Shown: piece by piece, positions 6,648 to 62,358 of the stretch
How the letters are laid out: every line of letters starts with the position of its first letter
Position numbering within the stretch: the stretch's first letter is position 1
Assembly (NCBI GenBank): GCA_963809485.1
Contig: CAWEJX010000006.1
Coordinates: 128,001 to 192,000, forward strand
Source of the DNA: an uncultured Acidobacteriota bacterium
GTDB lineage: Bacteria; Acidobacteriota; UBA6911
Direction of reading: 5' to 3'
Length of the DNA stretch: 64,000 bases
Program-made: the position numbers and the translations under genes
The notes under the pieces: model-generated
Databases searched by the model: none
The model's input: the letters and a program-made list of their open reading frames with translations, nothing else
What the model was told of the DNA's origin: nothing

Positions 6648-6696
6648 AAACTTTTTTGCAGGGGTGGACCGAAGTCTCCCCCCCAAGAGGACGTAC

Positions 6697-7485: not shown

Positions 7486-7488
7486 GCC

Positions 7489-29073: not shown

Positions 29074-29690
29074 GGGCGAACAAATATTCCAGGAATTGCC
29101 TGCACGGAAAAACTGAAAGGCGAAATGACCTCACGCGGAGGCGCGGAGAGCGCGGAGTCCCGAAATGATATCTTCACGAACTTCCCGTCTCGGCGTGAAA
29201 CAGGCGGATCCCGGCTGTCTATAAATTCTTATCTCCGAAATTTGCGCAACCGGTGACCGAAAATCACAGGATCTTCCATAACTGCAATACATTTCTCCAT
29301 TTGGCAAATCGATTAACCTTACTTCGATGCAAATGCCCGCGCATTAATGATATAATGCATCTCTGGGCTTAGCCCATATCTCTCAGAATTTACCCATTGC
29401 TATTACTGTTGACGCTGCTGCTGATAATGGTAGTTTGCTGGCAGTGACCCACACTCACCTCGCTCCCATGGAAGCGCGCTGATTCGGCTTGAAATAACGG
29501 GGAATCCCACAAAGCGGGAACAACTTGCGATCTATCCCGCATCCGGTCTGATTTCCTCCCGGCCGCAGAGCAGGCAAGCCGGCCCGCGTCCGGGAAAGCC
29601 ATGAAGGGACGACCAGTCCGCGGGCCCTGTTTACCTGGCGAACAAAAGCCTGCGGCATCTTTCTTCACTGCAACAGGAGGGAATGCCGTT

Positions 29691-38154: not shown

Positions 38155-38270
38155 CTGAAATGTGCTCCTTTTGGTTGTATTGGTTACTTGCAAGTTCCTA
38201 TTATAACCAATAGCGATGCACATTTCAGGACTATTTTCAAGTTTTCTCAACAAATCACGCTGGCTTAAGG
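37000..38270 (-). mobile_element. IS1380-family element, right end deleted
   Basis: Left terminus CCTTAAGCCAGCGTG (38270 downward) followed by an IS1380-type transposase. No matching right IR is seen. Confidence 0.8.
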
Positions 38271-49031: not shown

Positions 49032-50183
49032 ATGGCAAGGAATATTGTAGTGTGCTGTGACGGCACCGGCAACGAATACGGAGACAATAATACAAACGTT
49101 CTCAAGCTTTATTCCATCCTGCCCAAAAATGACGACGGGCAAATATCGTTTTATGATCCCGGCGTCGGCACTTACGCACTCCCTGCAACGCTTACAAAAG
49201 CCGTCAGGTCCGCTGCGAAAATCCTGGGTTTGGCTTTCGGGCGGGGGATTACGGCCAACATCGCCGATGCCTACCGGTTTCTGATGCGGACCTATGAACG
49301 CGGCGACCGTGTGTTTCTGTTCGGGTTCAGCCGCGGCGCATACACGGTCCGCGCCGTAGCGGCGATGCTGTATAAATGCGGGCTTCTGGATCAGCGGAAC
49401 GACAACCTGCTGCCCTGCGCGCTCAACCTCTTCAGGCATGAAATGCGGCCCAGGATTTATGCCGGATTCCGCCGCACCTTTTCCAGGCAATGTCCCGTTC
49501 ACTTTTTAGGAATATGGGATACGGTGAAATCCGTGGGCTGGATCTATGACCCGCTTACGCTTCAATTCACCAGAAGCAATCCCTGCGTGCGGGTCGTGAG
49601 GCACGCCGTAGCCATCGACGAGCGGCGATGTTTCTATCGACAGAACCTGTGGGGCTCGCCCGATGCGGGACAGGATGTGAAGCAGGCGTGGTTCGCCGGC
49701 TCGCATTCGGACGTCGGGGGGTCCTACCCCGAAAGGGAAAGCGGCCTTTCCCAGATTGCGCTGCAGTGGATGATAGAAGAAGCGATGCGCTGCGGGCTTG
49801 CGACCGACCGCAAACGGTATGAGACCGTGGTGCCGCGGACGGCTTCCACTGCGGAATACAGGACGGATGACGAGGATCAGGAAACCGAGTTTCACAGCCC
49901 TCCGGACTTCCGCGGCCCGATTCACGAATCCCTCAGAGGCTTCTGGTGGATCCCCGAATTCATCCCGAAGATGTATTTCGATCCGCGCGATGAGTACCGC
50001 AGAAAACTCATGATTCCGCGGGGCAGGAGACGCTGGATTCCCGAGGGTTCGGTTATTCACGAATCGGTGCTGCGTCGCATGCGGGACCCAGCGATGAACT
50101 ATCATCCTCCCAACCTGCCCAGGCAATACCAGGTGATCCCAAACACGGCGGAGTCCGGCGCCGCGGCAGAAAGCCTGTCTTGA
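49032..50183 (+). CDS. DUF2235 (Tle1-like) alpha/beta hydrolase
   Basis: CCDGTGN, TNV, YDPGVGT, FGFSRGA, GIWDTV, HAVAIDE.R and WFAG.HSDVGG motifs. Confidence 0.9.
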   Translation: MARNIVVCCDGTGNEYGDNNTNVLKLYSILPKNDDGQISFYDPGVGTYALPATLTKAVRSAAKILGLAFGRGITANIADAYRFLMRTYERGDRVFLFGFSRGAYTVRAVAAMLYKCGLLDQRNDNLLPCALNLFRHEMRPRIYAGFRRTFSRQCPVHFLGIWDTVKSVGWIYDPLTLQFTRSNPCVRVVRHAVAIDERRCFYRQNLWGSPDAGQDVKQAWFAGSHSDVGGSYPERESGLSQIALQWMIEEAMRCGLATDRKRYETVVPRTASTAEYRTDDEDQETEFHSPPDFRGPIHESLRGFWWIPEFIPKMYFDPRDEYRRKLMIPRGRRRWIPEGSVIHESVLRRMRDPAMNYHPPNLPRQYQVIPNTAESGAAAESLS

Positions 50184-50512: not shown

Positions 50513-51937
50513 TCAGCCCGCAACCGGTGGAAGAGGCTTCACGGGAGTCTGGGCGGAGCGAGCCGACGTGATATCAATGGCACATTGGAAGTCATCAGGC
50601 TTCTCCAGAAGCAGTTCCATGCCTTGGGCTATGCATTCATCGAAGCTTTTAGGCACGCTGGCCGTGAATGTGGTCGAATTCATCGGAATCCAGTCGCCGC
50701 TCGATACCAGGGCCGCTGCAGCCCGATGATCGTGAAGGACAGGGCTGTTGAGCATTTTCTCCTGTGTCCACACGCCGAAGAAAGCATGACCCCGGATTAT
50801 GAAGACGAGAGGGTGAAGCCCTATTCTTTCCAGACACGATGCGCAAAGAACCGCAAGGTCGAGGCAGGTCCCGTGGCGATGCTCGAGTATCTGCTCGGGG
50901 AAAAAGATCTTTTGCCACAATGTAAAACTTCCGTCCGGCAGCTTTTCCCCCCGCTCGAAGCTGGCCGGAGGATTGATATAACCCAGCTGCAGGTCCTCCT
51001 GAAGAACCAGGTAGAGGGCTCCGATCATCTCGAGTGCTTTTTCGGGGCTTCCGCTCTGATAACCGCTCAGGCTGGCGTCGTGACGCTCGCGCCGAAGGCG
51101 TGCCTGTGCCAGGGAAACGATTTTTTCGACGGCAACAGAATTCGGTTGTACGAAGCAGGCGAGGGTTTGGGCAATAGCCGGGTGGTAATACCAGTCGTTA
51201 TAGGCAAGTACCTCAATGGGCAGGGTCTCGGAATACTGCAGGGAACCTTCCGTGTAGACATCCGCGCGCAACCCTGCTCTTTCAGCTTCGCGAACCTCCT
51301 GCAGCCGGCTCCTGTTCAGAGGGATCACGATATCAGATTCGGTGTGCGTGCCTCCCGGTGAGACAGAGGGCACGCTCTTCTGCCAGGGTTCGCCGTAATC
51401 AGGCGCCACCCAGGCTTTTATCAGAAGGTCGTGGGCAGGTTCCGCCGAGGTATTTCGGACAGCAAGGGAACGGATGAGCGGCAGCCCTGCGTGAGTCAGC
51501 GCATAGCTCAAGCGGGGAAGCATCTGAATCTGGACCTCAAGGTTGCGTGTTGTCACTTGTTCCAACGATGGACGCTGTACGGTTCGGGAAAGCCCGGCCG
51601 CGTCCGCTGCCGGCAGTCTGGATTCCGGAAATGCAGCGGGCGTGCCGCGATCCTGCCGGTCAGACATCTGGGTGCGGAAGTCGGGCAAGCCCGGCATGGA
51701 GCTGTCCAGATCCGAAATGGAGGAGTTTGCCTCGCGCAGGGCGTCAGACAACTCTCTCTGGATGTCCTTGAGGATACCGCTCCTCTGTTGCCGAAGCACG
51801 TCGCGCACTCCGTGCACGCTGCTCTGAAGGTTTTTGCTCTCTCCTTTTTCAGGGAGGGGGGCCGGCAGCGGTTTGCCGCAGTTCTGACAAAACTTTCCCC
51901 CGCCGCCTTCTTCGTTGCAGTTTGGGCATAAAGCCAT
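50513..51937 (-). CDS. Zinc-ribbon plus transglutaminase/papain-like domain protein
   Basis: N-terminal CPNC..KFCQNCG. C-terminal Y.NPPASFE..QKI..P..IL....GTCLD....ASCLE.IGLHP....GHAF.GVW. Confidence 0.75.
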   Translation of the reverse strand: MALCPNCNEEGGGGKFCQNCGKPLPAPLPEKGESKNLQSSVHGVRDVLRQQRSGILKDIQRELSDALREANSSISDLDSSMPGLPDFRTQMSDRQDRGTPAAFPESRLPAADAAGLSRTVQRPSLEQVTTRNLEVQIQMLPRLSYALTHAGLPLIRSLAVRNTSAEPAHDLLIKAWVAPDYGEPWQKSVPSVSPGGTHTESDIVIPLNRSRLQEVREAERAGLRADVYTEGSLQYSETLPIEVLAYNDWYYHPAIAQTLACFVQPNSVAVEKIVSLAQARLRRERHDASLSGYQSGSPEKALEMIGALYLVLQEDLQLGYINPPASFERGEKLPDGSFTLWQKIFFPEQILEHRHGTCLDLAVLCASCLERIGLHPLVFIIRGHAFFGVWTQEKMLNSPVLHDHRAAAALVSSGDWIPMNSTTFTASVPKSFDECIAQGMELLLEKPDDFQCAIDITSARSAQTPVKPLPPVAG

Positions 51938-51960: not shown

Positions 51961-54018
51961 CTAATCGAAGAATTTGTGGCCGCAGTTTTCGCAGAATTTG
52001 CTGCCTTCAAGGGTTTCTGCGTGGCAATTCGGGCATACGGTCAGGCGTCCGCCCGAGCCTGAGGCGGACCCGGTCTGAACCATTCCACCTGCTCCCATGC
52101 CCGGAGTTATCACCGTCATCCCCGGCTGCGTGGCCCGCGTCGCCGCCATGGCAGTATCTCTCTGCGTTTCCATTCCCTTGGTGTACATTTCCTGCATCAT
52201 CTGGGCATACTGGCGGCTCATTTCCTTCAGGTCCGCCGTCCCCTGGTCCTTCATGGCCAGCATCCGGTCATAGACTCGCTGGATGTCCGCCGCCGAAGCA
52301 TTCTTGAACTTCTCCTGGAAAGCCTGTGCGACGGCGCCGCTTTTTTCGGCAGCCATGGCCAGGATCTGGTCTTCGCTGAATCCCTTGAGCGCTTCCGTGC
52401 GCTTGAGCTCCGCCAGCATCGCCGCCCGGTCTGCCGGTGCGGCGGCAATCAATGCCTCCGTCGACAAGGTGGATAGGGCCTGTATCTTTACCAGCTCCTG
52501 TTGGTGCCGTTGTGCTTCCGCTTTCATCTCGATTTCGGATACGCCGGCACGGGCCCGCAACTGACGCTCGATCTCCCGATCGGCATCCATCTGTTTTCTT
52601 TCCTTCATGAGATCCACCAGCTTCAGGCCGTCCGTTGCCTCCTGCATATCCAGCTCCTGTTCGGTCTGCCGCTCCAGGCGCTTTGCTTCAACCCGCTGCT
52701 TGATCGCCGCCCACTCCTGGGATTGGCGCGTCTCCATCTCCTTGCGGGATGCTTCCAGGCGGTGATCTAGCTGTGCCATTTCCTCGTCTCTCGTTGCATC
52801 CGTGATCGTGCGCTGCAAGGACAGCTTGCCAAGCATCTCGGCCTTCTGGAGCTCCGCCTGTTGCTCCAGCTTCAGCCGCTGTATCAGATGCTGGCGCAAT
52901 TGATCGTGATCTTCCTGTTTTTCGCTGAATTCACGCTGCAGCGTCTCATACTCGTCCTTGCGAAGGAACTTCTCCCTGTCCATTTCCATCATGAACTTCT
53001 CGAAATCGTCGTCGCTGCGGACTTTATCCATGCGATCGGATGCAACCGCCTTCCGCATCCGTTCGTAAACCCTGGCGCGCTCTTCGAACACATCCAGTTC
53101 CATGGCTGCCTTGGCGGTCTCCTGATCCAGGAGCTTGCGTTCGAGTCCGATGGTCTGGGCTCCCGCAAGCTGGGCCTCGAGGTCCTGGGCGTGCAGCCAG
53201 TATTCTTCCTTCTTTCCTGTCAATTCGTTCATGCGCGGATGCCGGAAATCAAAAATGCGCACATTGAGGAACGAAAGCCCTTTGCGGTCGAATGTTTTGG
53301 CCAGGTGCTGGGCGACGCCCTTTTCCATCTGCTGTTTGAAGGCAATGTCGGAGGAGAGCTCCAGCAAAGAGCGGCTCCGGATAAATTCCTGCAGGCAATT
53401 GTGCAGCTCCCCTTCCAGGAAGCTTTTGAGTTCGGCCAGCGGATAGTTTTGCCGGCTCTTCATCATGTTTTCGAAAAACTGCGTCGGATTGTCCATCTGC
53501 GCAACAAGGCGCGCATCGGCTGTAAGCCGGACCGGATCGCGCGTCAGCAGATCGGAAAACGAAAAAGGCAGCTCGATGTCGCCCGTATCGACCAGTACCG
53601 CCGTCGTAGTTTTCGAATTAAAGACATTCTTGATCTTTTGCAGCAGGCCGCCCATGTCATAGCGGCCCGGGTCAAGAATGCCCGATACCGCCCCGTTCAC
53701 GAAGAAAATGGCTTTCGTGCCGGCTTCAACAATCAGCCCACGTTTGAAGAATCCCTCGACATCGTCGACTTCCACTTTGGTAGCGAAGTCCTCGACTCGC
53801 CGGGCCCAACGATTGCCGGTCAGGGTGGGAGCGGCGCTTTCCGCGAGCGGCTTGCCGCAGTTGCCGCAGAACTTTTTATCTGCCGGAACCACGGCTCCGC
53901 AATTGTTGCACTTGATTTCCGATCCGGGCAGCCGTTCGCCGCAGCTTCCACAAAATCTGGAACCGGACTTGTTGGTGGCGTGGCATTTGGGACATTCGGT
54001 CTGAAATAATGGAACCAT
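51961..54018 (-). CDS. Double zinc-ribbon plus SPFH/Band-7 plus coiled-coil plus zinc-ribbon protein
   Basis: CPKC..FCGSCG and CNNCG..FCGNCG ribbons, LIVEAGTKAIFFVNG...LDPGRY (SPFH start), a long charged coiled coil and terminal CPNC..FCENCG. Start placed at ATG 54018. Confidence 0.82.
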   Translation of the reverse strand: MVPLFQTECPKCHATNKSGSRFCGSCGERLPGSEIKCNNCGAVVPADKKFCGNCGKPLAESAAPTLTGNRWARRVEDFATKVEVDDVEGFFKRGLIVEAGTKAIFFVNGAVSGILDPGRYDMGGLLQKIKNVFNSKTTTAVLVDTGDIELPFSFSDLLTRDPVRLTADARLVAQMDNPTQFFENMMKSRQNYPLAELKSFLEGELHNCLQEFIRSRSLLELSSDIAFKQQMEKGVAQHLAKTFDRKGLSFLNVRIFDFRHPRMNELTGKKEEYWLHAQDLEAQLAGAQTIGLERKLLDQETAKAAMELDVFEERARVYERMRKAVASDRMDKVRSDDDFEKFMMEMDREKFLRKDEYETLQREFSEKQEDHDQLRQHLIQRLKLEQQAELQKAEMLGKLSLQRTITDATRDEEMAQLDHRLEASRKEMETRQSQEWAAIKQRVEAKRLERQTEQELDMQEATDGLKLVDLMKERKQMDADREIERQLRARAGVSEIEMKAEAQRHQQELVKIQALSTLSTEALIAAAPADRAAMLAELKRTEALKGFSEDQILAMAAEKSGAVAQAFQEKFKNASAADIQRVYDRMLAMKDQGTADLKEMSRQYAQMMQEMYTKGMETQRDTAMAATRATQPGMTVITPGMGAGGMVQTGSASGSGGRLTVCPNCHAETLEGSKFCENCGHKFFD

Positions 54019-54133
54019 GGCGAGTCTCCAAGATAGATGCTCAGTCCAACTGCAGCATGGAAACAGAGCAGTCATTTAATGGCCAGGGAACGAAAATTGA
54101 TGCAATCGAGCAAATACCCGTGGCCTGATATTA

Positions 54134-55744
54134 TCATGGCTTGAGCCCCTGTGTTCTTGGAATCTGAGGGATCCGCACAGTAATTTGGGCGGCGGAGCCT
54201 CCCAGCAATTCGATCGGCAGCGACCGGGAACCCAGAGGAAGCATGCTTGCCTCGCCCGGGCGAATTTCCTGCACCAGCCGGCGGCTTCCCGGCGAGCCCT
54301 GAACCTCAAAAAAAGCCTTGCAGGACGATTCTTTAAGCCAGAAAAAACCATGACGGCGGGTTCCTATGCGTGTGAGGCGGATGTGCCATAAATTTTCACC
54401 GTCAAAGCTCCGCCAGCCTTCTCCCACTTTCAAAGTGTGTTCCCCTTGCAGTCCCGCAAAAGGATCAAATATGGAAAACTCGATACCGCCATCGCGGGCA
54501 ATGGAGGATAGCACCTCCTCGGGCGCACGGAAGGGCTTCTGCCTGGCCTGAAGGATTCTCCGGATCTGCTCCCTTTCCTGAGGTGAAAAGGGTGAATTGG
54601 AAGAGCCGAGGACATTGCTTTCAAAGACCTCGCACAGCCTTGCGGTCAGTTCCTCGGAGCTCTGCTGCGAAATCATAGTATTTTCCAGCACCTGTTTCAG
54701 AATCAGATATTTTTTGCGGGAGATTTCGATCTTGCCTCGCAGCTCGTCAATCTCTTTCTGCTCCAGCTCCATGCGCAAGGTTTTCTCTTTGAGAGCCTGG
54801 TCTTTTTGCAGTGCGCGTACAACCTCATCAAAATGCTCTGCGTCCTCGATCTCGCGAAGTTTTCCCGCAAGGATCTCCTGGCGCCAGGCTCCGCGCAATC
54901 GGCTGATTTCCAATTCCGCTGCCAGTTTGCTCTTCTCCTGGGAAGCTTGTTCGAGTTTCTCATAAAGACTATCCAGGAATTCGCTGCGCAGCCTCGCCCG
55001 GAAAACTCGAACCAGTTCAAGCCCCGAATCCTCCGATGCCCTTGGGAGCCAGATGGATGCTTTTTCCATGCATGCGGATTCCATCCCCCGTGCCCCAACG
55101 ATGTCTTCACCGGAAAGTGAGGCCGCCCACTCTCGTGCCTCAGCCTGCAGGCCCTCGACGAGCTTGCCCCTGAATCCGGACGGCATCAGCGATGCGAGGT
55201 CTTGTGCAATGTCGATAAGCCTGTCCGGCCGCAATCGGAAGCACGCGTGGATCTGCAGGGAGAGCTGGCAATGGTCGGCGGCAAATAGGGGCTCGATGCA
55301 GAGTTCAAGCGGGAATTCGGCCTGGTTATACAGTACGGCCCTGGCATCGCTGTTGAGCCCTTTCCGGCCGGCAATCCTGTCGAGTGCTTTTGAACCATGT
55401 CGCCCGCCGGCAAGCCGCTCCTGAACGACGCATGCGTGCACAATCGCACATCGCCAGCCTTTGGGGACTACGAGGCCGCGTCTGGCTGTGTCCCACTCCA
55501 CCTGCCGAACAAGCGGTTCTTCCGCGGCGGAAACCCTTTGAGTCTCCTGCCTGGCTGCCTTCTCATCCTGCGGCCGCCCGGCTGTGGTCCCTCCAAAGCC
55601 GAAGATCTTCGCTGCCGGTTTCCGGATTTTTCGCGCAAAGCCGAGCAAAAGAGTAGTTGTAACGGCGCAGGTGAACGGTTTCCAGTAATCCCGTAGCCAT
55701 TCCAAAAGAGAAACCAGAAAGGAGCCCTCAGCCGGGAGTGCCAT
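54134..55744 (-). CDS. Membrane-anchored divergent SPFH-like coiled-coil protein
   Basis: N-terminal hydrophobic segment, GLVVPKGW.CAIV (SPFH-like), SGLELVRV, then a coiled coil. Layout parallels the neighbouring SPFH protein. Confidence 0.6.
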   Translation of the reverse strand: MALPAEGSFLVSLLEWLRDYWKPFTCAVTTTLLLGFARKIRKPAAKIFGFGGTTAGRPQDEKAARQETQRVSAAEEPLVRQVEWDTARRGLVVPKGWRCAIVHACVVQERLAGGRHGSKALDRIAGRKGLNSDARAVLYNQAEFPLELCIEPLFAADHCQLSLQIHACFRLRPDRLIDIAQDLASLMPSGFRGKLVEGLQAEAREWAASLSGEDIVGARGMESACMEKASIWLPRASEDSGLELVRVFRARLRSEFLDSLYEKLEQASQEKSKLAAELEISRLRGAWRQEILAGKLREIEDAEHFDEVVRALQKDQALKEKTLRMELEQKEIDELRGKIEISRKKYLILKQVLENTMISQQSSEELTARLCEVFESNVLGSSNSPFSPQEREQIRRILQARQKPFRAPEEVLSSIARDGGIEFSIFDPFAGLQGEHTLKVGEGWRSFDGENLWHIRLTRIGTRRHGFFWLKESSCKAFFEVQGSPGSRRLVQEIRPGEASMLPLGSRSLPIELLGGSAAQITVRIPQIPRTQGLKP

Positions 55745-55836
55745 ATATCCAGGTGCCTCTATTTGTCAGCCTTCGTTTTTGGATAGCGGCCGTTAACCAT
55801 CGTGATTTTGCCAAATGCTTCCTGGGAAGCCATGGG

Positions 55837-57048
55837 TCAGTTGCTTCGCGCGAATTCCTGAAAGCGGGATTCAAGCTTCCTGCCCCGCGCGGCATCCACA
55901 CGGATGCGATCGAATGCCGTATCAAAATCGTTTTTGTTGAGCGGACGCGTCCTGATCCGGTACCCCTGTATTTTCTCCCTGCCCCCGTCCACGCATCGAG
56001 GGATATCCCCGTTCAGGTCTTCCACCATGATGTTCACCGCCTGGTTCGTAAGCCTTTCAAGATCCCTCCCGCTAAACCATTCTGTACGCCTGACAATATC
56101 GTCGAGCGCATAATCCAGCGCATGTCCTTCCTTGAGGATCAGGATATCCAGGATGGACCGGCGGGCTTGATCGTCGGGAAGAGGAATGTAGATCCGTTTC
56201 TGGAACCGGCTCAGCACTGCGTCGTCAAGATCCCAGGGCGCGTTGGTGGCGGCGATGGTCAGAACGAAACGGTCTTCGCCCTTGTCGGCGAGGCCGTCCA
56301 GTTCCGACAGAATGGTGGACAATACCCTGCGCTCGGCTCCGGATTCGGAACCCTCTCCTCGCGGAAGGCAAAGGGATTCCACCTCGTCGATGAAGACAAC
56401 GGCGAAACCTTCATCCGCTTCGCTTCGCGCCGCATCGAAAAGAGCCGTGATCAGCTTGGACGATTCGCCAAAATATTTCGAAAGCAGACTGCCGGATTTG
56501 ACGTTGAAAAAGGTTGCACCAAGCCCGTTGCTGGTGGCGGCGGCAAGCAGCGTTTTTCCCGTCCCGGGCGGTCCGTAAAAAAGGATCCGGCGCCAGCCTT
56601 CGAGCTTCACTCCTTCGGGCTTCTGCGCAAGGGCAAGTCCGTAAGTGAATTTGATTTCCCGCTTGGTTTCCTCCAGTCCGCCGATCTGGTCCCAGGTTAC
56701 TTTGGACCGATGGATCATCGCCGCGATGTCGCGTGTGTATTCCCCGCGTTCTCCCGATTCCGGCTCCCGCAGGTCTTTGGGCGCAATCGGGGGCGACGGT
56801 TTCGCGGCGATCCTTCTTTTGCCTGATTTCAAGGCCTCGGCAATAGCAAGGTACTGCGCGGCTTTCTGCCTGCGCCGTTGCTCATCCTCACGCGTCAGCG
56901 CATAGTCGGCGTACGTTTTCATCAATTTGGCTGCTGCCACATAAGCAGCCGCGGCCTCAGCCCCATTGTTTTCCGCTTCCAGGGACCTTGCCTCAGCCAA
57001 AGCTTTATCGAGCGACATCTTCACGGCGCCGCTGAGATCGACCTTCAT
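55837..57048 (-). CDS. Vps4/CdvC-like AAA+ ATPase with N-terminal MIT domain
   Basis: MIT-like A..LE...N..EA...Y..AA.L...RQKAAQYLAIAEALK. VTWDQIGGLEE.K, ILFYGPPGTGKT, LLSKYFGESSKL, FIDEVESL and AATNAPWDLD.A..SRFQKRIYIPLPD. Single AAA module. Confidence 0.85.
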   Translation of the reverse strand: MKVDLSGAVKMSLDKALAEARSLEAENNGAEAAAAYVAAAKLMKTYADYALTREDEQRRRQKAAQYLAIAEALKSGKRRIAAKPSPPIAPKDLREPESGERGEYTRDIAAMIHRSKVTWDQIGGLEETKREIKFTYGLALAQKPEGVKLEGWRRILFYGPPGTGKTLLAAATSNGLGATFFNVKSGSLLSKYFGESSKLITALFDAARSEADEGFAVVFIDEVESLCLPRGEGSESGAERRVLSTILSELDGLADKGEDRFVLTIAATNAPWDLDDAVLSRFQKRIYIPLPDDQARRSILDILILKEGHALDYALDDIVRRTEWFSGRDLERLTNQAVNIMVEDLNGDIPRCVDGGREKIQGYRIRTRPLNKNDFDTAFDRIRVDAARGRKLESRFQEFARSN

Positions 57049-57073
57049 GAATGACTCCCTTCACAGGCGAGGC

Positions 57074-57691
57074 CTATTCGTCCCGGACTTTTTCTGCCTT
57101 GATGGCCCGATTGATTTCCTCCTGATAGCGGTCGAGATCCTCTTCATCCGTGCCGCTTTCTTCTGCTTTTGCCATTTCCCCAATCGCCTTGTCGAACTGA
57201 GCGAACCCGGCGTCCTCCTTGACCTTGCCCCGGGTGACATCGATCTCCGCTTCACCCAGGATCTCCTCCAGCATATCCTGGAAAGCCTCGTCATCCACCT
57301 CGGCTGCGTCGATGGCCTTCTGGATGGAGCTTTCGCGGAAACGCACAATTATGTTCTGGAGGCTTTTGCGGTCCTTTTTCTTCTCCAGCATTTCCATTTT
57401 GCGCAGGAAAGAAGTCAGCGCAGTTTTTGAGAGCGACAGGCGGCGGAGATCCGTGTTGGTATAGCTGTTGTCGATCTCCAGCTGCCGCATCTCCCGGAAA
57501 AGGTCGCGCAGCAACTCCTGCTTTCCGGACCTCTTTGCCGCAACAGCTTCGCGGATCTTCTCCTGTTTGGTGCGCTCACTGACTTCCAGGTCGCGTCGTT
57601 TCTTCTTTTGTTCCCTGTCGATTTCCTTGAGCTGAACCTTGAGATCCGGGGCCGTTGGGGTTTTGCTGAAAAGACTGTTCCAGAAGTTCAT
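57074..57691 (-). CDS. ESCRT-III (Snf7/CdvB)-like helical protein C
   Basis: 205 aa, predicted all-helical. N-terminal amphipathic MNFWNSLFSK, basic hairpin (IREAVAAKRSG), acidic C-half and a terminal amphipathic helix. Confidence 0.6.
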   Translation of the reverse strand: MNFWNSLFSKTPTAPDLKVQLKEIDREQKKKRRDLEVSERTKQEKIREAVAAKRSGKQELLRDLFREMRQLEIDNSYTNTDLRRLSLSKTALTSFLRKMEMLEKKKDRKSLQNIIVRFRESSIQKAIDAAEVDDEAFQDMLEEILGEAEIDVTRGKVKEDAGFAQFDKAIGEMAKAEESGTDEEDLDRYQEEINRAIKAEKVRDE

Positions 57692-57741
57692 GATCTGTTC
57701 TCCTTTGCGTGATACGGTAACTTGGGGACCTGTGTATGCTT

Positions 57742-58353
57742 CTATTCCAGGTCGGCCTCTTTGTGTGTCCGCGGCGGCCGCTCCCGGCTGCTTTCCGGTC
57801 CTGGTCCGATGATTCGATTTTTGATTTCAGCCAGACGCTTTCGTTCGGCGGAATTGTTGACCGCCTCGGGCATCTGTGCGGTATTCTCGCCCGCGAGGCT
57901 CTCCCTTTTGTAAATTTCCAGGTTTTCCTCCACCTCTCCGATGAGCCGGTCAATCTGGTCTTCACTGACGCCGCGCGAGCGCATCGCCTCCATTTCCTGA
58001 ATTTTCGCGATCAGGTTGATGTGGAAATTTACATTCCCGTTATAAATACCTACCAGTTTCTCCAGGCTGTCGCGCTGGTTGCCGTAGCGCTCAATCCGAC
58101 GCAGGATGGTTGCCTCTTCCGTCGGAGAAAGCCCGCCTTTGCGGATCCTGTCCTCTTCCAGGAGCAGGGACTTTTCGAGCGCGATCAGCTGATCCTCGTG
58201 CTCCCTCAGTTCCATTTCATTCCTGCCCCGCTGCGCTTCCAGGCCCTTGAGCAGCTCGCGGGAATTCGCGGCCTTCAGGTATATATCCCGGGCATCATCG
58301 GGAACTTCAGCTCTTTGAAACAGGTTTTTCAGCTTGTCCATGACAGATAGCAT
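57742..58353 (-). CDS. ESCRT-III-like helical protein B
   Basis: 203 aa coiled-coil hairpin with an N-terminal amphipathic MDKLKNLF and a MIM1-like ERKRLAEIK near the C-terminus. Confidence 0.5.
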   Translation of the reverse strand: MLSVMDKLKNLFQRAEVPDDARDIYLKAANSRELLKGLEAQRGRNEMELREHEDQLIALEKSLLLEEDRIRKGGLSPTEEATILRRIERYGNQRDSLEKLVGIYNGNVNFHINLIAKIQEMEAMRSRGVSEDQIDRLIGEVEENLEIYKRESLAGENTAQMPEAVNNSAERKRLAEIKNRIIGPGPESSRERPPRTHKEADLE

Positions 58354-58362
58354 AGCGCCTCC

Positions 58363-59091
58363 CTAGTGTGCCGTTCTTTGTATCGCAAATCTTCCTTTGT
58401 GTTCGATGATTTGATAGCGCCCCTGGGAGGTTTCCACAGCTTCCTGCAAACCCGGGCGGCTGAGATGAAAATCAACGAGAAACGCATCCAGCGGGACTTG
58501 TCCGCCGGGGAAAAGCAAATCCGGGGCGGTGTTCATCGCTTTTTCAGCGCGTGTTCTTTCCTCTTCTGCCGTTTCCGGATTAAACAGATTTTTCCACGGA
58601 CCCTCACTGCCGAAAACCTGCCAGGCCGTTCCTTCAAAATGCTCCACGAGGTAGAAATGGATGTCGCTTCGATCAGGGGCATGGATCTTCCATGATTCCG
58701 GCCACCCTACGGGAGAATAGACTCCTATGCCGTGGGGGATGCCTTCCCTAATGTCGAGCCCCAAAGGGCCGGAAATTTGCTCCAAAAGGTTGTCGGCAGG
58801 GCGGAGCAGATCCTTTTCGCCCGTCAGCCCTGTGCCTTTGAGAGCGATGGCTGCCAGGCATAGACGGATCCGTTTAAGCAGACCGCTGCCAAATACAAAT
58901 CGCCGGACGTCGCCGAAGACTCTCTGCGGGGTTTGAACCTGAATTCCGGGGTCCGGGCGTATGATCTCGCCGGCTGAGGGGACTGCAATCTCGCGGCACG
59001 ATCGAACCTTCAGTTCGAAACGGCTCAGAAAGGCATCGCCAAGTCGTGTCTTTCCGTTAACGTCGCTTGTGTATGGATTCATCGGATTCAT
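58363..59091 (-). CDS. Hypothetical protein of the ESCRT-like cluster (possible C-terminal winged helix)
   Basis: 242 aa. ATGA overlap with the upstream ATPase. C-terminal helix-helix-beta-hairpin pattern (VPLDAFLVDFHLSRPGLQEAV...YQII). Confidence 0.65.
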   Translation of the reverse strand: MNPMNPYTSDVNGKTRLGDAFLSRFELKVRSCREIAVPSAGEIIRPDPGIQVQTPQRVFGDVRRFVFGSGLLKRIRLCLAAIALKGTGLTGEKDLLRPADNLLEQISGPLGLDIREGIPHGIGVYSPVGWPESWKIHAPDRSDIHFYLVEHFEGTAWQVFGSEGPWKNLFNPETAEEERTRAEKAMNTAPDLLFPGGQVPLDAFLVDFHLSRPGLQEAVETSQGRYQIIEHKGRFAIQRTAH

Positions 59092-60221
59092 GCCGGTCCA
59101 CCGCCTTTGGCGAACTTTTTGTAGCGTTCCAGCATTGAAGGTGTAACCGACGGCGCCACCTCCGAAATTGCCCGTCTGACATCCTGGAGCGTCAGGACGG
59201 CCTCAGCGCCGCTGCGTATCTGACGCTGAAATGGAAAGTCCGTAGCTTTGATGCACACACCCACGATATCGGCTCCGCTGTAGCCTTCCAGGGAGCCGGC
59301 GACTTCATGCAAATCGATTCCGGGATCCATGGGTATGCCATCGAGGTTCAGGTGCAATATCTGCTCCCGGGCTTCGGCATCCGGAAGACCGATATAGAAT
59401 TTCTCGCCGAAGCGGCCTGTGCGAAGCGCTGCCTCATCCAAATCCCACGGACGGTTCGTGGCGCCCATCAGCAAAAGGCAGTTGGTGTTCGAATTCAGCC
59501 CGTCGACCTGGGAAAGGAATTCGGGGACTACGCGGTTCATCACCGTGGAGTTGCCACCGCGCTTGCCGACCAGCGCTTCTGTTTCATCCAGGAAAACGAT
59601 GGAGACCGGATAGCGCCGCGCCACGTCAAACAGCCGCGCGAGGTTTTGCTCGGCCACTCCCACCCACTGAGACATGATGCTGGAGCATTTCACGCTGAGA
59701 AACCGGGCATCCAGCTCGGTCGCGACGGCTTTGGCGATCATGGTTTTACCGGTTCCCGGAGGGCCGTAGAGCAGGATGCCGCCGCCCGCCCTCTTTTTAA
59801 ATCGATGGGCTGCATCCGGATGGCGAAAGGGATATAGGACGCGCAGATCGATAGCTTCTTTTACGGATTTCAGGCCCGCAATCTGATCAAACCGGATGTC
59901 CGGCTTTTCCGAGACTATCCATTTATCCTCCGGCGTCAGGTGATCATCCGCTTCCCTGGGCGATGCCGTCTGGAGTCTGCTTTGGTCCGCCCCCCGTTTG
60001 GGTGAGATTTGCTGCAGCGGAAGGCCGAAGGCCATATCGCGCAGGCGCAGGCTCTTTTCCCATCGGATTCGCTTCAGGCTGCCATCCGAATTCCGGGCTG
60101 CTTTGAGCAGGTATTTGGCGGCACGCAGCAGATGAATGCGAGCCCGGGCTTTATCTCCGGCTGTAAGATAATCGATACCCTGATCCTTGTTTTTTTCGTA
60201 TTGATCCAGGTAGAACTGCAT
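59088..60221 (-). CDS. Vps4/CdvC-like AAA+ ATPase with MIT-like N-terminus
   Basis: Three-helix N-terminus. EKPDIRFDQIAGL..VKEAI...V.YP..HP, GILLYGPPGTGKT.IAKAVATE, IMSQWVG.AE, FLDE, EFLSQVDG, GATNRPWDLD, GYSGADI and PSV....LERY.KF. Confidence 0.85.
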   Translation of the reverse strand: MQFYLDQYEKNKDQGIDYLTAGDKARARIHLLRAAKYLLKAARNSDGSLKRIRWEKSLRLRDMAFGLPLQQISPKRGADQSRLQTASPREADDHLTPEDKWIVSEKPDIRFDQIAGLKSVKEAIDLRVLYPFRHPDAAHRFKKRAGGGILLYGPPGTGKTMIAKAVATELDARFLSVKCSSIMSQWVGVAEQNLARLFDVARRYPVSIVFLDETEALVGKRGGNSTVMNRVVPEFLSQVDGLNSNTNCLLLMGATNRPWDLDEAALRTGRFGEKFYIGLPDAEAREQILHLNLDGIPMDPGIDLHEVAGSLEGYSGADIVGVCIKATDFPFQRQIRSGAEAVLTLQDVRRAISEVAPSVTPSMLERYKKFAKGGGPA

Positions 60222-60252: not shown

Positions 60253-60855
60253 TTATTTTTGTTCCTTGTTCAGTTCCTCTTCAATGTCGGCAATGTCTTT
60301 GTCAATCTGATCATCAATCCCCTTGCGCTCCTCGTGAGCCACTTCCTCTTCAAGCATCTTCTCGATATCGCGATCACTTACCAGCTCCTCCTCGGAGCTT
60401 CCCTCGTAACCGAACATCGACTCCGATGTGGTTTCCAGGAAAGCATCCATGCGCTCTTCGATGCTTTCGGCCTTGGACATGGCCTTTTCAAAATTCACCT
60501 GGGTTTTGGCCATGTCCGTGGACCCGAAAACCTCGGCGATCGACTTGGAGAAAGCGTTCATAGCCTTGGCAAAATCGTAATGGCCTTCGGCCTGGTCCTT
60601 TAGTTGTGTGGCGGATTCCAGCGCCAAAAGCTGGCGTTCGAGCCGGATTTTGATGGTTGCTGTCTTTTTGATGGCCTTTTTAAGGAATTCATATTGATTC
60701 GTCCAGCCCAGCTTGCGCGCCCGCTTTGCTTTTTCGATGTAATCCAGTTCGTATTTCTCGTTGGCCTTGAGCTGACGCCGGATTTGGGTTAACGCCTTGC
60801 GCACCTGGATGTTTCGCTCGATTCGCCTTTCCTCTTTGGACTTGAAGAGACTCAT
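60253..60855 (-). CDS. ESCRT-III (CdvB/CHMP1-like) protein A
   Basis: 200 aa with a very basic N-half (IEKAKRARKLG...RLERQLLALESA) and FEKAM...ESIEERMD. Acidic C-terminal tail. Lies directly upstream of a Vps4-like gene. Confidence 0.7.
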   Translation of the reverse strand: MSLFKSKEERRIERNIQVRKALTQIRRQLKANEKYELDYIEKAKRARKLGWTNQYEFLKKAIKKTATIKIRLERQLLALESATQLKDQAEGHYDFAKAMNAFSKSIAEVFGSTDMAKTQVNFEKAMSKAESIEERMDAFLETTSESMFGYEGSSEEELVSDRDIEKMLEEEVAHEERKGIDDQIDKDIADIEEELNKEQK

Positions 60856-60996: not shown

Positions 60997-61260
60997 TTAA
61001 AGCCATGTATGACCTTCCGAGCACTGGTGGGAGGAATAATGGCCTTGCGTCAGACAACAAGCGCGCAGGCAAGCCGGGCAGGCGTAGGCGCATTGGGTCG
61101 TATTGTCCATGATTCCCGTTGCGCCTGCCGGCGTGCCGTCCTTCGTTCTCTCCTTTGAAGCGCCGGATCCTGAAATTCTCTCAATTTCACCCTGTGTTTC
61201 TTTCAGCTTTTTGCTGATCTCTGCCTTAATCCTTTCCAGGTCGTCCTCGATGGTTCCCAT
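60997..61260 (-). CDS. Small protein with an amphipathic helix and a Cys/His-rich metal-binding tail
   Basis: GAGG RBS. IEDDLERIKAEISKKL, then C-x3-C-x2-C-x3-CC-x4-H-x3-H-x-C-x3-H. Confidence 0.65.
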   Translation of the reverse strand: MGTIEDDLERIKAEISKKLKETQGEIERISGSGASKERTKDGTPAGATGIMDNTTQCAYACPACLRACCLTQGHYSSHQCSEGHTWL

Positions 61261-61356: not shown

Positions 61357-62358
61357 TCAGGGAAGAGTAGCGTTCAACCGCTGCAGCAGCATATCTGTGA
61401 TTTTGCGAACATCGGCGGCGCCCCGCCCATAATCCAGCAGTTGAGGAATTTTCCTGCTGCTGGAAATGTGTATCGTAAAGCCTTCGGGGAGGGGGTGGAT
61501 CGTCGCCGAAATCGTCTGCCCGTAGGTCTGCCAGTTCCAACCGGTGCTGCCTCTAAGAGTCCGGGCGTTCGAATCCCACAGCAAATTCTTCGCTCCATAG
61601 GATTGGAAGACTTCCTCGATGATGGTTATGAGCTTCTGCTCGGGCAGATTGGTTTTTAGTATTCCTTCACCCATAAGCTGAACCATTGGCGGTTTTTGTT
61701 CTGCAGCGGGCTGATCTTGCTTTTCCGTGGGTTGCCGGGAACTCTGCCGCTTGGGATACATTTCGTGGTCGAGGCTCAACGCTTCCATACGTCGGCGCTC
61801 CATTTCGGCCCGGCGATTCTCGTCGTCCGATTTCCGACGATTTTCCTCTGCCAGCCGCAGTTTCTCCGCCTTGAGCACTTCCACTTCTTTTCGCGCTCTT
61901 TCGGCGGATGCGCAATGCTGGCAGCAGTTCAGTTCCTCATCCCGGTGGCGCACGCATATCCAGTCGCGATTGCATCGAAGACAACGGAAACTGGTGCTCC
62001 TTTCGGCGTATCCTCCACAGATGGGGCATACGGCTTGGGAGGCATGGGATTCCGGCGCGTGCGGTATGCCGATAATAATGTTGCCGACTTGTGCTCCCGC
62101 GTGGGAGTTATGAGTCGAGGCGTCGATATTTCCCTTGAGAATTCCGATATCGCCGGCGCGAAATCCTCCCGGGGCCTGCTGAGAAGCTCCCGTATCCTGT
62201 TCCGATAACAGAAAAGCGCATTCGGAGCAAAACCTCGCTCTTCCCTCTATTTTACTGCCGCAGTTGGGACACAGCCGCTCCTGGGCCAGAGGCTTTCCGC
62301 AATTTTCGCAAAACCTGCCTTCCCCGCCCTCCTGGTTGCATTGAACACAGATAGCCAT
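61357..62358 (-). CDS. Multi-zinc-ribbon protein (first gene of the cluster)
   Basis: CVQC..FCENCG, CPNCG..FCSEC and CPICG..C..C...C..H..CC..C motifs, a coiled coil and a C-terminal alpha/beta domain. GAGGG RBS. Confidence 0.8.
   Translation of the reverse strand: MAICVQCNQEGGEGRFCENCGKPLAQERLCPNCGSKIEGRARFCSECAFLLSEQDTGASQQAPGGFRAGDIGILKGNIDASTHNSHAGAQVGNIIIGIPHAPESHASQAVCPICGGYAERSTSFRCLRCNRDWICVRHRDEELNCCQHCASAERARKEVEVLKAEKLRLAEENRRKSDDENRRAEMERRRMEALSLDHEMYPKRQSSRQPTEKQDQPAAEQKPPMVQLMGEGILKTNLPEQKLITIIEEVFQSYGAKNLLWDSNARTLRGSTGWNWQTYGQTISATIHPLPEGFTIHISSSRKIPQLLDYGRGAADVRKITDMLLQRLNATLP

Follow-up and report, generated by a model that had tools for sequence, protein, structure and literature searches.

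A bacterial operon encoding ESCRT-III-like proteins and two MIT-AAA ATPases that resembles an archaeal ESCRT system

The window analyzed here, a stretch of 64,000 nucleotides from an uncultured Acidobacteriota bacterium, contains an operon that is probably the bacterial equivalent of the ESCRT-III/Vps4 machinery of archaea, of the euryarchaeal 'Main-clade' type. An earlier note on this DNA had described two AAA ATPases with MIT-like domains beside ESCRT-III-like genes, a description confirmed by Pfam AAA matches and by matches of the N-terminal profiles. The host is bacterial, as indicated by the sigma-54 activators and large outer-membrane beta-barrels encoded in the window outside the operon. 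The genes, with coordinates from the ORF list of the window, are as follows.

61357..62358, minus strand: ZnR333, 333 aa, double zinc-ribbon protein 5' of protein A (Pfam DZR, E 7.7e-6), possibly the first gene of the operon
60997..61260, minus strand: s87, 87 aa, small cysteine-rich, between ZnR333 and protein A, an ORF only
60253..60855, minus strand: protein A, 200 aa, assigned to the Snf7/ESCRT-III family
59088..60221, minus strand: ATP1, 377 aa, MIT-like N-terminus, one classic AAA domain and a C-terminal helix
58363..59091, minus strand: X242, 242 aa, 'X-domain' accessory protein
57742..58353, minus strand: protein B, 203 aa, helical, probably ESCRT-III-like
57074..57691, minus strand: protein C, 205 aa, divergent ESCRT-III-like
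55837..57048, minus strand: ATP2, 403 aa, predicted MIT and AAA domains, putative orthologue of an archaeal Vps4-like ATPase
54134..55744, minus strand: Y536, 536 aa, coiled-coil protein of the same operon
51961..54075, minus strand: SPFH/Band-7 protein, 704 aa, with zinc ribbons at both termini and a long coiled coil
50513..51937, minus strand: TG474, 474 aa, transglutaminase-like, with a CxxC motif near the N-terminus, at the 3' end of the operon

It is uncertain that s87 is a real gene, and it has no family match in Pfam or NCBIfam. Apart from a doubtful one in TG474, no transmembrane segment was predicted in the proteins of the cluster. The locus had been read as two tandem modules, each ATPase following its own ESCRT-III-like gene or genes, and this reading does not hold. 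ATP1 follows the end of the protein A gene after 31 nt, and the genes for B and C lie upstream of ATP2, with 25 nt between C and ATP2; X242, which had been missed, is placed between ATP1 and B and overlaps the ATP1 stop codon by 4 nt. This overlap and the position of X242 indicate a single, tightly packed, co-directional operon.

Both ATPases match Pfam AAA (ATP1, E 1e-36; ATP2, E 1.5e-34), and are only 35% identical to each other, over 233 residues. The pore-loop and arginine-finger strings quoted from them earlier were all found in the translations: ATP1 contains SQWVG and AALRTGRF, with Cdc48-type arginine fingers, and ATP2 contains SKYFG and AVLSRF, a shortened SRH with a single arginine. 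In HMMER alignments, ATP1 aligns without gaps to the 'LRPGR' region of Cdc48 D2, whereas ATP2 requires a 2-residue gap against Cdc48 and none against the 'ALRRF' of spastin. The proposed distinction between a Cdc48-like and a shortened, meiotic-clade spacing is thus real, and it is family-wide, with R..GR kept in 46 of 46 ATP1-type proteins and the 2-residue deletion and S-R-F in 38 of 38 ATP2-type proteins. ATP2 and its archaeal orthologue have one arginine here, as against two in meiotic-clade ATPases. The catalytic motifs are intact: Walker A is near-invariant (per position, 44–46 of the 46 ATP1-type and 37–38 of the 38 ATP2-type sequences), and neither family varies at the Walker B D-E, at the sensor-1 N or at the pore-loop G. 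As its aromatic residue, the pore loop carries W in 43/46 ATP1-type and Y in 35/38 ATP2-type proteins.

For both ATP1 (213.8 bits) and ATP2 (174.3 bits) the top NCBIfam model is CdvC, with both scores far under its cut-off of 650, and ATP1 reaches 20.0 bits against Pfam Vps4_C, where the cut-off is 21.3. The window's own ATP1 and ATP2 sequences gave no match to Pfam MIT. For the N-terminal profile of ATP2, however, the top PDB matches are the MIT domains of Vps4B and Vps4A (2cpt at E 1.6e-4, and seven more), and for that of ATP1 the top PDB match is 2mpk (E 0.0047), which we take to be an MIT domain entry. The two profiles also match each other (hhalign probability 86.8%, E 4.3e-6). At the level of profiles, then, both N-termini are MIT-like.

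In trees of limited sampling, ATP2 and the archaeal Vps4-like ATPase of a Thermococcus plasmid form a clade (support 1.0 and 100), ATP1 is sister to this clade (support 0.938 and UFBoot 97), and CDC48 D1 and D2 fall apart from ATP1. Judged from sequence, ATP2 is a direct orthologue of archaeal Vps4. The suggestion that ATP1 is intermediate between Cdc48 and Vps4 fits these trees, within their limited sampling, as ATP1 holds a sister position outside CDC48 and retains R-x-G-R.

None of the three small helical proteins of the window matches Pfam at E ≤ 0.01 by its own sequence. Protein A, which begins with 'MSLFKSK' and ends in an acidic tail with conserved helices, reaches Pfam Snf7 only at E 3.4 by itself, but 19 of 30 aligned members of its family match Snf7, the best at E 6.5e-8. 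The top PDB matches of the family profile are CHMP2A (0.022), Snf7 (0.042) and CHMP3 (0.7), and protein A is 34% identical to a Thermococcus plasmid protein that matches Snf7 at E 4.2e-4. By these family-level matches, protein A is a member of a Snf7-related family.

The AF2 model of protein C (pLDDT 76.9) has an N-terminal 'LF' helix, a hairpin (14–55/58–104) and short helices, and a disordered linker leads from these to two helices at the C-terminus. Its profile (48 sequences) finds CdvB (9s9j, E 0.0023) as the top PDB match, followed by CHMP3 (2gd5, E 0.042), aligned nearly full length over positions 25–173, and it matches two Thermococcus operon genes (8e-13 and 1e-10). Compared with A, the C profile gives an hhalign probability of 28.5% (E 6e-4). 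In VIA-align, ESCRT-III superfamily members fill 13 of the 50 rows listed, at Z 6.7–7.7, tied with generic hairpins, and Foldseek found nothing significant for the models of either B or C. No Pfam Snf7 or PspA domain was seen among the 120 C homologues listed or in the 28 scanned.

Protein B is more divergent and is probably ESCRT-III-like. Its AF2 model (pLDDT 85.3; helices 4–12, 19–27, 31–72, 77–126, 131–156 and 167–182) opens with short helices, continues with a long hairpin and a third helix, and ends, after a linker, in a conserved C-terminal helix. The best natural Foldseek matches are CdvB2 filaments, at a non-significant E of 0.19, and in VIA-align the bMERB domain (Z 10.8) and BAR domains outrank CHMP3 (8.1). 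B matches C in hhalign (probability 53%, E 1.4e-4) and gives no signal against A (0.3–0.6%), so that its ESCRT-III link runs through C only; no Pfam domain was found in 73 B homologues.

X242 has no Pfam, NCBIfam or PADLOC match. A phmmer search with it finds ORFs directly upstream of B in 14 of 37 related loci, and these ORFs also match residues ~345–607 of a 607-aa protein that heads the Thermococcus operon; a jackhmmer search with the latter listed 45 bacterial ORFs, the window's own X242 not among them. The fusion partners of the X-domain in relatives are an S8 subtilase, a MerR HTH and SPFH; in several Planctomycetota loci the X-domain forms the C-terminus of an SPFH-labelled ORF. The SPFH protein of the window matches Pfam Band_7 (E 2.9e-15) and, over three stretches, Zn_Ribbon_1 (E 1.4e-17), and has homologues in five of 66 related loci (L003, L025, L040, L052 and L055). 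Y536 belongs to no Pfam family and has a homologue (35% identity) in the same position in one acidobacterial relative only, L003, which also encodes a TG474 homologue (52% identity). TG474 has a weak Pfam transglutaminase-like match (E 0.0059), and its CxxC motif was read by eye, with no zinc-ribbon family match. ZnR333 has a homologue in one of the 66 loci (L053). A gene for a Tle1-like phospholipase adjoins the operon.

Searches returned 67 related bacterial loci, all in metagenome-assembled genomes, of which 66 were fetched and 37 had enough flanking sequence for gene counts. Most are from Planctomycetota, on contigs so labelled of up to 828 kb, and the closest are from Acidobacteriota. Across the fetched loci the recurrent layout is [X-domain]-B-C-(ATP2)-A-ATP1, and Ser/Thr kinase genes lie near some of them. 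The gene set is patchy in the host genus (2/25 genomes, G000 counted), and none of 16 genomes from other families of the host's class has it.

Among the 37 countable loci, 32 have B and 28 have C; 17 encode both ATPases, 10 only ATP1 and eight only ATP2. As an A homologue is flanked by both ATPase types in 17 of the 37, the two-ATPase arrangement is not due to chance. The idea that each ATPase serves its own filament is not borne out, as 10 of the 37 combine B and C with ATP1 and have no ATP2. In all five genomes with ATP1-only loci that were tested, an ATP2 orthologue was absent from the whole assembly, and in four of five genomes with 'ATP2-only' loci a full-length ATP1 orthologue was found elsewhere (none in the fifth). 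From these two observations, ATP1 looks like the core ATPase and ATP2 an optional one, which makes both an obligate heterohexamer and a strict pairing of one ATPase with one filament unlikely.

The closest known counterpart is an operon on the Thermococcus peptonophilus plasmid NZ_CP014751.1 (locus L082), which encodes an X-domain protein, two C-like proteins, a Ser/Thr kinase, a Vps4-like ATPase, a PP2C phosphatase and an A homologue. This gene set matches the archaeal 'Main-clade' ESCRT layout in the passages of Makarova et al. (2024, mBio, PMC10936438) used here. Its ATPase passes Pfam Vps4_C (35.8 bits), is 45% identical to ATP2 over 294 aa (E 2e-80) and has the same AVLSRF. The likeness thus includes a Vps4-like MIT-AAA ATPase, a Snf7-like A homologue, two C-family genes and an X-domain protein whose C-terminal ~250 residues match the ORFs upstream of B; in the same passages Ser/Thr kinases stand near archaeal loci, as near some of the bacterial ones. 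The present hosts, in contrast, are bacteria (Acidobacteriota and Planctomycetota), and the window has no kinase or PP2C gene. It adds the B family, SPFH/zinc-ribbon, coiled-coil and transglutaminase/ProA-like genes and a second MIT-AAA ATPase, ATP1 with its Cdc48-type arginine fingers, absent from the Thermococcus operon.

As in CdvABC and eukaryotic ESCRT-III/Vps4, several ESCRT-III paralogues are encoded together with a MIT-AAA ATPase, the closest natural matches of C and B include CdvB, CdvB2 and CHMP3, CdvC is the leading model for both ATPases, and the Vps4B MIT domain tops the matches of the ATP2 N-terminus. However, both ATPases fall far short of the CdvC equivalog cut-off, the SRH of ATP1 is not shortened, that of ATP2 has a single arginine in place of two, and CdvA, ESCRT-I, ESCRT-II and ubiquitin components did not turn up. 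PspA and Vipp1 (IM30), which represent the ESCRT-III superfamily in bacteria, are likewise peripheral proteins with a helical hairpin; structural matches of the B and C models include PspA (4whe, Z 7.5) and Vipp1 (Z 7.0–7.5), and PspA loci with an SPFH/Band-7 partner appear in excerpts of Makarova et al. (2024, PMC10936438) and Ravi et al. (2024, PMC11237479). By contrast, protein A is of Snf7 type, Pfam PspA_IM30 does not match A, B or C even at E 10, and PspA/Vipp1 systems are without a Vps4-like ATPase according to part of a 2025 review (PMC7619361). The portions of Ravi et al. (2024, mSystems, PMC11237479) considered here report transfers of VPS4-like ATPases from archaea to several bacteria, with a TPR+6TM gene in place of snf7, and some bacterial PspA or Snf7 clade members adjoining AAA+ ATPases, with a transmembrane segment and with ABC-transporter or OmpA partners. 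The window differs from the cases described there in having a soluble Snf7-type protein, two more ESCRT-III-like proteins and two MIT-AAA ATPases.

The best of the alternatives, though unlikely, is a system for phage defense or conflict. The AAA ATPases would then be IetA-like sensors or unfoldases, and the helical, SPFH, transglutaminase or protease parts effectors that damage membrane or invader; the ESCRT-III-like filaments would serve abortive infection or the sealing of phage-induced lesions. IetAS is a pair of an ATPase, of the classic AAA type, and a protease. PADLOC IetA models match both ATPases (E 8.6e-35 and 5.5e-32), as does NCBIfam IteA, and the fusion of X-domain and S8 subtilase in two acidobacterial relatives (L006 and L007, E 1.7e-43) recalls the IetAS pair. 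The IetA scores (about 110–119 bits) nevertheless lie below those for CdvC, CDC48 and PAN (174–214 bits), which points to generic classic-AAA similarity, and the window's operon has no protease gene; to our knowledge, the parts of IetAS include neither MIT domains nor ESCRT-III-like genes. A strong match links TG474 to the N-terminal section of NCBIfam 'anti-phage protein ProA' (positions 1–313 of 1903, E 4.7e-76, 256 bits, cut-off 1500), and the Tle1-like neighbor and the patchy occurrence in the host genus would also suit defense. Yet the B-C-A-ATP1 core recurs across Planctomycetota with no ProA-like or Tle1-like neighbors, PADLOC does not match A, B, C, X242, SPFH or TG474, and the archaeal counterpart has the ESCRT 'Main-clade' layout.

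Less probable still is an obligate mixed hexamer of ATP1 and ATP2 working on one composite filament. Both types do occur together in 17 of 37 loci, the window included, and the single arginine of ATP2 (SRF, 38/38) against the two of ATP1 makes complementation within a mixed ring conceivable. Against it stand the ten ATP1-only loci, the lack of an ATP2 orthologue in the five such genomes tested, the one 'ATP2-only' genome that has no ATP1 orthologue, and the Thermococcus operon, whose only ATPase is of ATP2 type with the same SRF motif. It is highly improbable that B and C merely serve as generic coiled-coil adaptors or substrates and that the ATPases are Cdc48-like unfoldases acting in quality control or regulated proteolysis and not at membranes: Cdc48 and Afg2 D2 are the top single-domain PDB matches of ATP1, bMERB and BAR domains lead for B, and Pfam Snf7/PspA was found in no B or C homologue scanned, but A belongs to the Snf7 family, CdvB leads for C, both ATPases have MIT-like domains, an SPFH membrane-scaffold partner is in the operon, and an archaeal ESCRT operon is orthologous to this one.

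We therefore return to the ESCRT-III/Vps4 reading. Protein A and the more divergent B and C would be soluble subunits that polymerize at the cytoplasmic side of the inner membrane by means of their N-terminal 'LF' helices and helical hairpins. Their conserved C-terminal helices, after flexible linkers, would dock onto the MIT domains of hexameric ATP1 and, where present, of ATP2; ATP1 would be the core ATPase and the partner of A, and ATP2 an optional second ATPase. Subunits would be pulled through the aromatic pore loops, W in ATP1 and Y in ATP2, and the resulting remodeling or disassembly of filaments may lead to membrane constriction, repair or vesicle release, with the X-domain and SPFH/zinc-ribbon proteins as possible recruiters or membrane scaffolds. 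ESCRT is a membrane-cutting machinery that, in the portions of recent reviews considered here, is described as missing from bacteria; the operon of this soil bacterium, with three putative ESCRT-III-like filament proteins and two Vps4-like ATPases, closely resembles an archaeal ESCRT system.

The two ATPases and three helical proteins of the window are best read as parts of a membrane-remodelling system of ESCRT-III/Vps4-like type in a bacterium, with an orthologous counterpart in archaea. Their genes lie in a closely packed run, all in the same direction, on the minus strand from about 62.4 kb down to 50.5 kb.

Genes of the window operon, in order of transcription
61357-62358, minus strand: ZnR333, double zinc-ribbon protein, 333 aa (possible first gene)
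60997-61260, minus strand: s87, doubtful small ORF, 87 aa
60253-60855, minus strand: A, ESCRT-III-like helical protein, 200 aa
59088-60221, minus strand: ATP1, MIT-like + AAA ATPase, 377 aa
58363-59091, minus strand: X242, X-domain protein, 242 aa
57742-58353, minus strand: B, helical protein, probably ESCRT-III-like, 203 aa
57074-57691, minus strand: C, ESCRT-III-like helical protein, 205 aa
55837-57048, minus strand: ATP2, MIT-like + AAA ATPase, 403 aa
54134-55744, minus strand: Y536, coiled-coil protein, 536 aa
51961-54075, minus strand: SPFH/zinc-ribbon protein, 704 aa
50513-51937, minus strand: TG474, transglutaminase/ProA-like protein, 474 aa (eleventh and last)

From A to TG474 the intergenic gaps are 9 to 92 nt, except for a 4-nt overlap of ATP1 and X242. 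None of the cluster proteins shows a clear transmembrane segment. The earlier note, which spanned exactly the ATP2 stop to the ATP1 start and described two tandem modules of ATPase and helical protein, did not mention X242, which is located between the two. Long ORFs on the opposite strand over B (57736-58350, plus strand), over ATP1/ATP2 (e.g. 55738-56826, 362 aa) and over the SPFH gene look like shadow frames of G+C-rich coding DNA rather than genes. Outside the operon the window holds ordinary chromosomal metabolism and one transposase. This DDE transposase (37000-38253, minus strand; Pfam DDE_Tnp_1_4, E 5.9e-17), about 12 kb from the operon, is the sole mobile-element gene seen in the window, and two tandem giant outer-membrane beta-barrel proteins (24718-29007 and 29601-33992, plus strand; ~1430-1460 aa) each have a CarboxypepD_reg N-terminal domain.

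Both ATPases have a single classic AAA domain (Pfam AAA, E 1e-36 for ATP1 and 1.5e-34 for ATP2) and are 35% identical over 233 residues of it. The top NCBIfam model for each is CdvC, the archaeal Vps4, with CDC48 and PAN next, at scores (213.8 bits for ATP1, 174.3 bits for ATP2) that do not reach the CdvC equivalog cut-off of 650 bits; ranked by the CdvC model, the two top the host genome, followed by two FtsH-like genes. The pore-loop and arginine-finger strings by which the earlier note had told them apart, SQWVG and AALRTGRF in ATP1 and SKYFG and AVLSRF in ATP2, were all recovered from the translations. In HMMER alignments, LDEAALRTGRF of ATP1 aligns without a gap to Cdc48 D2, and LDDAVLSRF of ATP2 shows a two-residue gap against Cdc48 and none against spastin.

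These differences hold across the families. In the 46 ATP1-type and 38 ATP2-type proteins counted, Walker A varies hardly at all, the D-E of Walker B and the sensor-1 N not at all, and the aromatic pore-loop residue is largely kept in both families. The ATP1 type is marked by SKWVG and LRPGRF, both arginines of the Cdc48-type LR-x-GR being present in 46/46; the ATP2 type is marked by SKYFG and by the two-residue deletion together with S-R-F (38/38). Two adjacent arginines are the rule for the second region of homology (SRH) of the meiotic clade; neither ATPase has this form with its shortened spacing, since ATP1 is Cdc48-type and ATP2 is short but has S-R. Because S-R-F replaces the R-R-F of spastin in all 38 ATP2-type proteins and in an orthologue from Thermococcus, this Vps4-like subfamily would have a single arginine finger and, as judged from its sequences, deviates from the textbook two-arginine motif. 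For the C-terminal helix, Pfam Vps4_C gives 20.0 bits with ATP1 (cut-off 21.3), no match with ATP2, for which a katanin alignment extends to residue 399, and a passing 35.8 bits with the Thermococcus orthologue of ATP2.

The ATPase N-termini appear MIT-like at the level of profiles. Pfam MIT does not match those of the window's own ATP1 and ATP2, but within the families it matches 3/28 (ATP1) and 2/26 (ATP2) N-termini, with Pfam TPR_2 matching 10/28 and 8/26. The ATP2 N-terminal profile (26 sequences) finds the Vps4B MIT domain 2cpt as its top PDB match (E 1.6e-4), with further matches to MIT domains of Vps4B (2jqh, 4u7y, 1wr0, 7l9x, 2zam) and Vps4A (2jq9, 1yxr). The top match of the ATP1 profile (28 sequences) is 2mpk (E 0.0047), which we take to be the MIT domain of a chitin synthase. 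The two profiles also align with each other (hhalign probability 86.8%, E 4.3e-6, 66 columns), and in an Atlas search with ATP1 residues 1-80 the nearest named clusters, useful as leads only, were MIT (scores 0.85 and 0.82). Conserved C-terminal helices are present in A, B and C; prediction of a complex between ATP1 1-78 and the A tail 150-200 gave scores of 0.06, 0.39 and 0.00, with 0.32 as the mark, which weighs neither way on binding.

Among the helical proteins, A appears to fall in a Snf7-related family. Its own sequence scores E 3.4 against Pfam Snf7 (PF03357), but among 190 homologues found, 19 of 30 aligned family members match Snf7 (best E 6.5e-8), and the top PDB matches of the family profile are CHMP2A (0.022), Snf7 (0.042) and CHMP3 (0.7). 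C belongs to a small family (96 representatives in 1.84 billion proteins) with no Pfam domain among the 120 homologue matches listed or in the 28 homologues scanned. Its initial small profile, like that of B, matched no ESCRT-III protein in the PDB; a profile of 48 sequences places archaeal CdvB (9s9j, E 0.0023) first and CHMP3 second (E 0.042, aligned over positions 25-173), and C matches A weakly in hairpin register (hhalign probability 28.5%, E 6e-4). B is linked through C only (hhalign probability 53%, E 1.4e-4, 88 columns): it gave no hhalign signal with A and no direct Snf7/CHMP profile match, and none of its 73 homologues has a Pfam domain. Searched to E 10, A, B and C show no match to PspA/Vipp1 (PF04012, PspA_IM30); the A-family members show none either.

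Structure is compatible with ESCRT-III for B and C, although the searches are not decisive. AlphaFold2 models of B (pLDDT 85.3) and C (76.9) open with short N-terminal helices, followed by a long hairpin, then by shorter helices, a linker of low confidence and C-terminal helices; this order fits the ESCRT-III alpha1-alpha2 hairpin, short helices, linker and C-terminal helix. In VIA structural searches the ESCRT-III superfamily makes up 13 of the 50 matches listed for C, at Z 6.7-7.7, level with unrelated hairpins, and with B as query CHMP3 (8.1) ranks below bMERB (Z 10.8) and BAR domains. Across the structural searches with B and C, CHMP3, CHMP1B, Snf7, PspA and Vipp1 score Z about 7-8. Foldseek against the PDB found nothing significant for either, the best natural matches of B being CdvB2 filaments at a non-significant E of 0.19. 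A, B and C all start with an 'LF'-containing segment, presumably reminiscent of the N-termini of eukaryotic ESCRT-III proteins.

A tblastn search of plasmids with A gave one match, to a Thermococcus peptonophilus plasmid (34% identity, E 2e-10). There, on a 49-kb plasmid (NZ_CP014751.1, locus positions 655-8558), lies an eight-gene archaeal operon.

Genes of the Thermococcus peptonophilus plasmid operon and their matches
Hypothetical protein, 172 aa: no match found
Hypothetical protein, 607 aa: C-terminal ~250 residues match X-domain ORFs
Hypothetical protein, 198 aa: matched by the C profile (E 1e-10)
Hypothetical protein, 201 aa: matched by the C profile (E 8e-13)
Ser/Thr kinase, 569 aa: matches Pfam Pkinase
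ATPase, 393 aa: identity of 45% with ATP2 (E 2e-80) and 31% with ATP1
PP2C phosphatase, 245 aa: annotated product
Hypothetical protein, 188 aa: matched by the A profile (E 2.4e-26)

The ATPase carries the AVLSRF motif of ATP2, and the 188-aa protein matches Snf7 with its own sequence (E 4.2e-4). In a jackhmmer search, 45 bacterial ORFs located just upstream of B were listed as matches to the C-terminal ~250 residues of the 607-aa protein; some are SPFH-fused, and they include the ORFs reached from the window's X242 by phmmer. Because X242 itself is absent among the matches listed from that search, its link to the archaeal protein is indirect. This arrangement agrees with the archaeal ESCRT 'Main clade' described by Makarova et al. 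(2024, PMC10936438), in which Vps4 and ESCRT-III are accompanied by two signature accessory proteins, frequently also by a kinase and a phosphatase, and to which Thermococcales belong. The plasmid location of this orthologous operon suggests that the ESCRT module is mobile.

Trees of the AAA core were built from the 46 ATP1-type and 38 ATP2-type proteins, the Thermococcus ATPase, one haloarchaeal ATPase, D1 and D2 of three annotated CDC48-family plasmid proteins, and a host FtsH-like protein as outgroup, with FastTree on all 93 sequences and IQ-TREE on 29 (10/46 ATP1-type, 10/38 ATP2-type, 9 references). ATP2 and the Thermococcus ATPase form a clade (FastTree 1.0, UFBoot 100), ATP1 is sister to that clade (0.938, UFBoot 97), and CDC48 D1/D2 stand as a separate group (0.867, UFBoot 83), in a sampling without CdvC, eukaryotic Vps4, katanin, spastin or PAN.

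Scanning a single genome for each prokaryotic species gave 67 loci, all in metagenome-assembled genomes: 55 are labelled Planctomycetota or subgroups, 5 Acidobacteriota or Vicinamibacterales (66-80% identity), one each Sumerlaeota, Hydrogenedentes and Proteobacteria, and 4 Bacteria only. HMM mapping labelled the A gene in 66/67. The order in Planctomycetota is [X-domain]-B-C-(ATP2)-A-ATP1, and in Acidobacteriota A-ATP1-X-B-C-ATP2. Of the loci, 37 have 4 kb or more of sequence upstream of A and 3 kb or more downstream; among these, both ATPases are present in 17, only ATP1 in 10, only ATP2 in 8 and neither in 2. B is present in 32 and C in 28, and B and C do not require ATP2. In all five tested genomes of ATP1-only loci there were just cross-matches to ATP2 (36-39% identity, 133-147 bits), and four of five tested genomes of ATP2-only loci carry, away from the locus, an ATP1 orthologue of full length (44-46% identity, 305-315 bits). 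ATP1 is therefore near-universal and ATP2 optional. We suggest that ATP1 is most plausibly the core motor, a Vps4 relative retaining Cdc48-type arginine fingers, and that ATP2 is probably an optional but true Vps4 orthologue. A had no tblastn match in the phage collection, and a search of sequencing runs listed no RNA run and no run with half or more of the query words.

The main rival explanation is that the window operon is a defence system, a reading to which several accessory genes and the patchy spread of the A family around the host (2/41 genomes, and 2/25 in the host genus, counting the genome G000) lend support. The match of TG474 to the NCBIfam model 'anti-phage protein ProA' covers the first 313 of the model's 1903 positions (E 4.7e-76, 256 bits); TG474 also has an N-terminal CxxC, read by eye and with no zinc-ribbon family match, and a weak transglutaminase-like Pfam match, and is conserved in the related locus L003 (52%). 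A literature search found no paper on a ProA/ProB anti-phage protein. Adjoining the operon, and converging on its end, is a gene for a protein with a Tle1-like T6SS phospholipase catalytic domain (49032-50183, plus strand; Pfam E 1.6e-79). The X-domain, for which an Atlas search with X242 matched only a Planctomycetota cluster, is fused to an S8 subtilase in two acidobacterial relatives (L006:15903-18629 and L007:2562-5258), as the C-terminal part of a ~900-aa protein (E 1.7e-43). Both ATPases also give IetA-like matches. However, these amount to generic AAA similarity, and the IetAS pair of IetA ATPase and IetS serine protease is not what the window encodes: its operon has no protease, X242 is a stand-alone 242-aa form only, and the S8 fusion is confined to L006 and L007. 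For the non-ATPase proteins PADLOC returned nothing besides a weak JetC coiled-coil match for Y536. Defence and membrane remodelling are not mutually exclusive, because membrane repair could itself be defensive.

The SPFH/Band-7 protein carries zinc ribbons at both ends, three N-terminal and one C-terminal, and a long coiled coil; for archaeal Meth_adaptin ESCRT loci, Makarova et al. (2024, PMC10936438) describe the same mix of SPFH, zinc-ribbon and coiled-coil domains. Long ORFs with a C-terminal X-domain occur at five Planctomycetota loci (L026, L029, L040, L053, L055), those of L040 and L055 labelled SPFH, and in some Planctomycetota the X-domain is fused to a MerR-type HTH. Beside the cluster in several related loci (flanks of L008, L048, L006 and L003) are Ser/Thr kinases, some with an RDD domain or zinc ribbon, and an FHA protein. 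Downstream of ATP1, related loci also show a recurring trio: two proteins without a Pfam match, of 633-716 aa and 284 aa, and a kinase-RDD protein. Archaeal contamination of the bacterial bins was considered and rejected, since genes typical of bacteria are found in the window and on several of the long contigs.

We return to an ESCRT-III/Vps4-like remodelling system as the best reading, and infer that its helical proteins would polymerise, that the MIT-like domains would bind their tails and that the system would act on membranes. A broader reading is that Planctomycetota and Acidobacteriota keep a complete ESCRT-like scission machinery, built from three or four paralogues of ESCRT-III, a recruiter of X-domain/SPFH type and two paralogues of Vps4, in which ATP1 is an early Cdc48-to-Vps4 form; we put it forward tentatively and consider it rather unlikely.

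According to a 2025 review (PMC7619361), bacteria appear to lack a Vps4-like ATPase. Ravi et al. (2024, PMC11237479) report that Vps4-like genes have passed from archaea to bacteria, with displacement of snf7, and that some PspA or Snf7 homologues of bacteria are associated with AAA+. No description of the operon was found in the accessible text, excluding supplementary tables, of the ESCRT-III/Vps4 literature on bacteria, Planctomycetota, Acidobacteria and anti-phage systems, and the examined text of Cavalier-Smith (2020, PMC7203096) names neither ESCRT-III nor Vps4.

A conserved bacterial operon of Snf7-type subunits and Vps4 orthologues, found here in at least 67 species-level genomes, would alter the absent-from-bacteria picture and would supply a bacterial setting in which to study ATP-driven ESCRT-III remodelling. 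On the question of the origin of Vps4 from Cdc48, ATP1 would serve as a natural intermediate. If the broader reading is true, ESCRT-III/Vps4 membrane remodelling is not limited to archaea and eukaryotes, and ATP1, joining an MIT domain to a motor with Cdc48-type arginine fingers, would be a survivor of the Cdc48-to-Vps4 transition. The operon would also add candidate machinery for Planctomycetota membrane dynamics, and the system could feed into the unusual membrane invaginations or vesicle biology of these bacteria.
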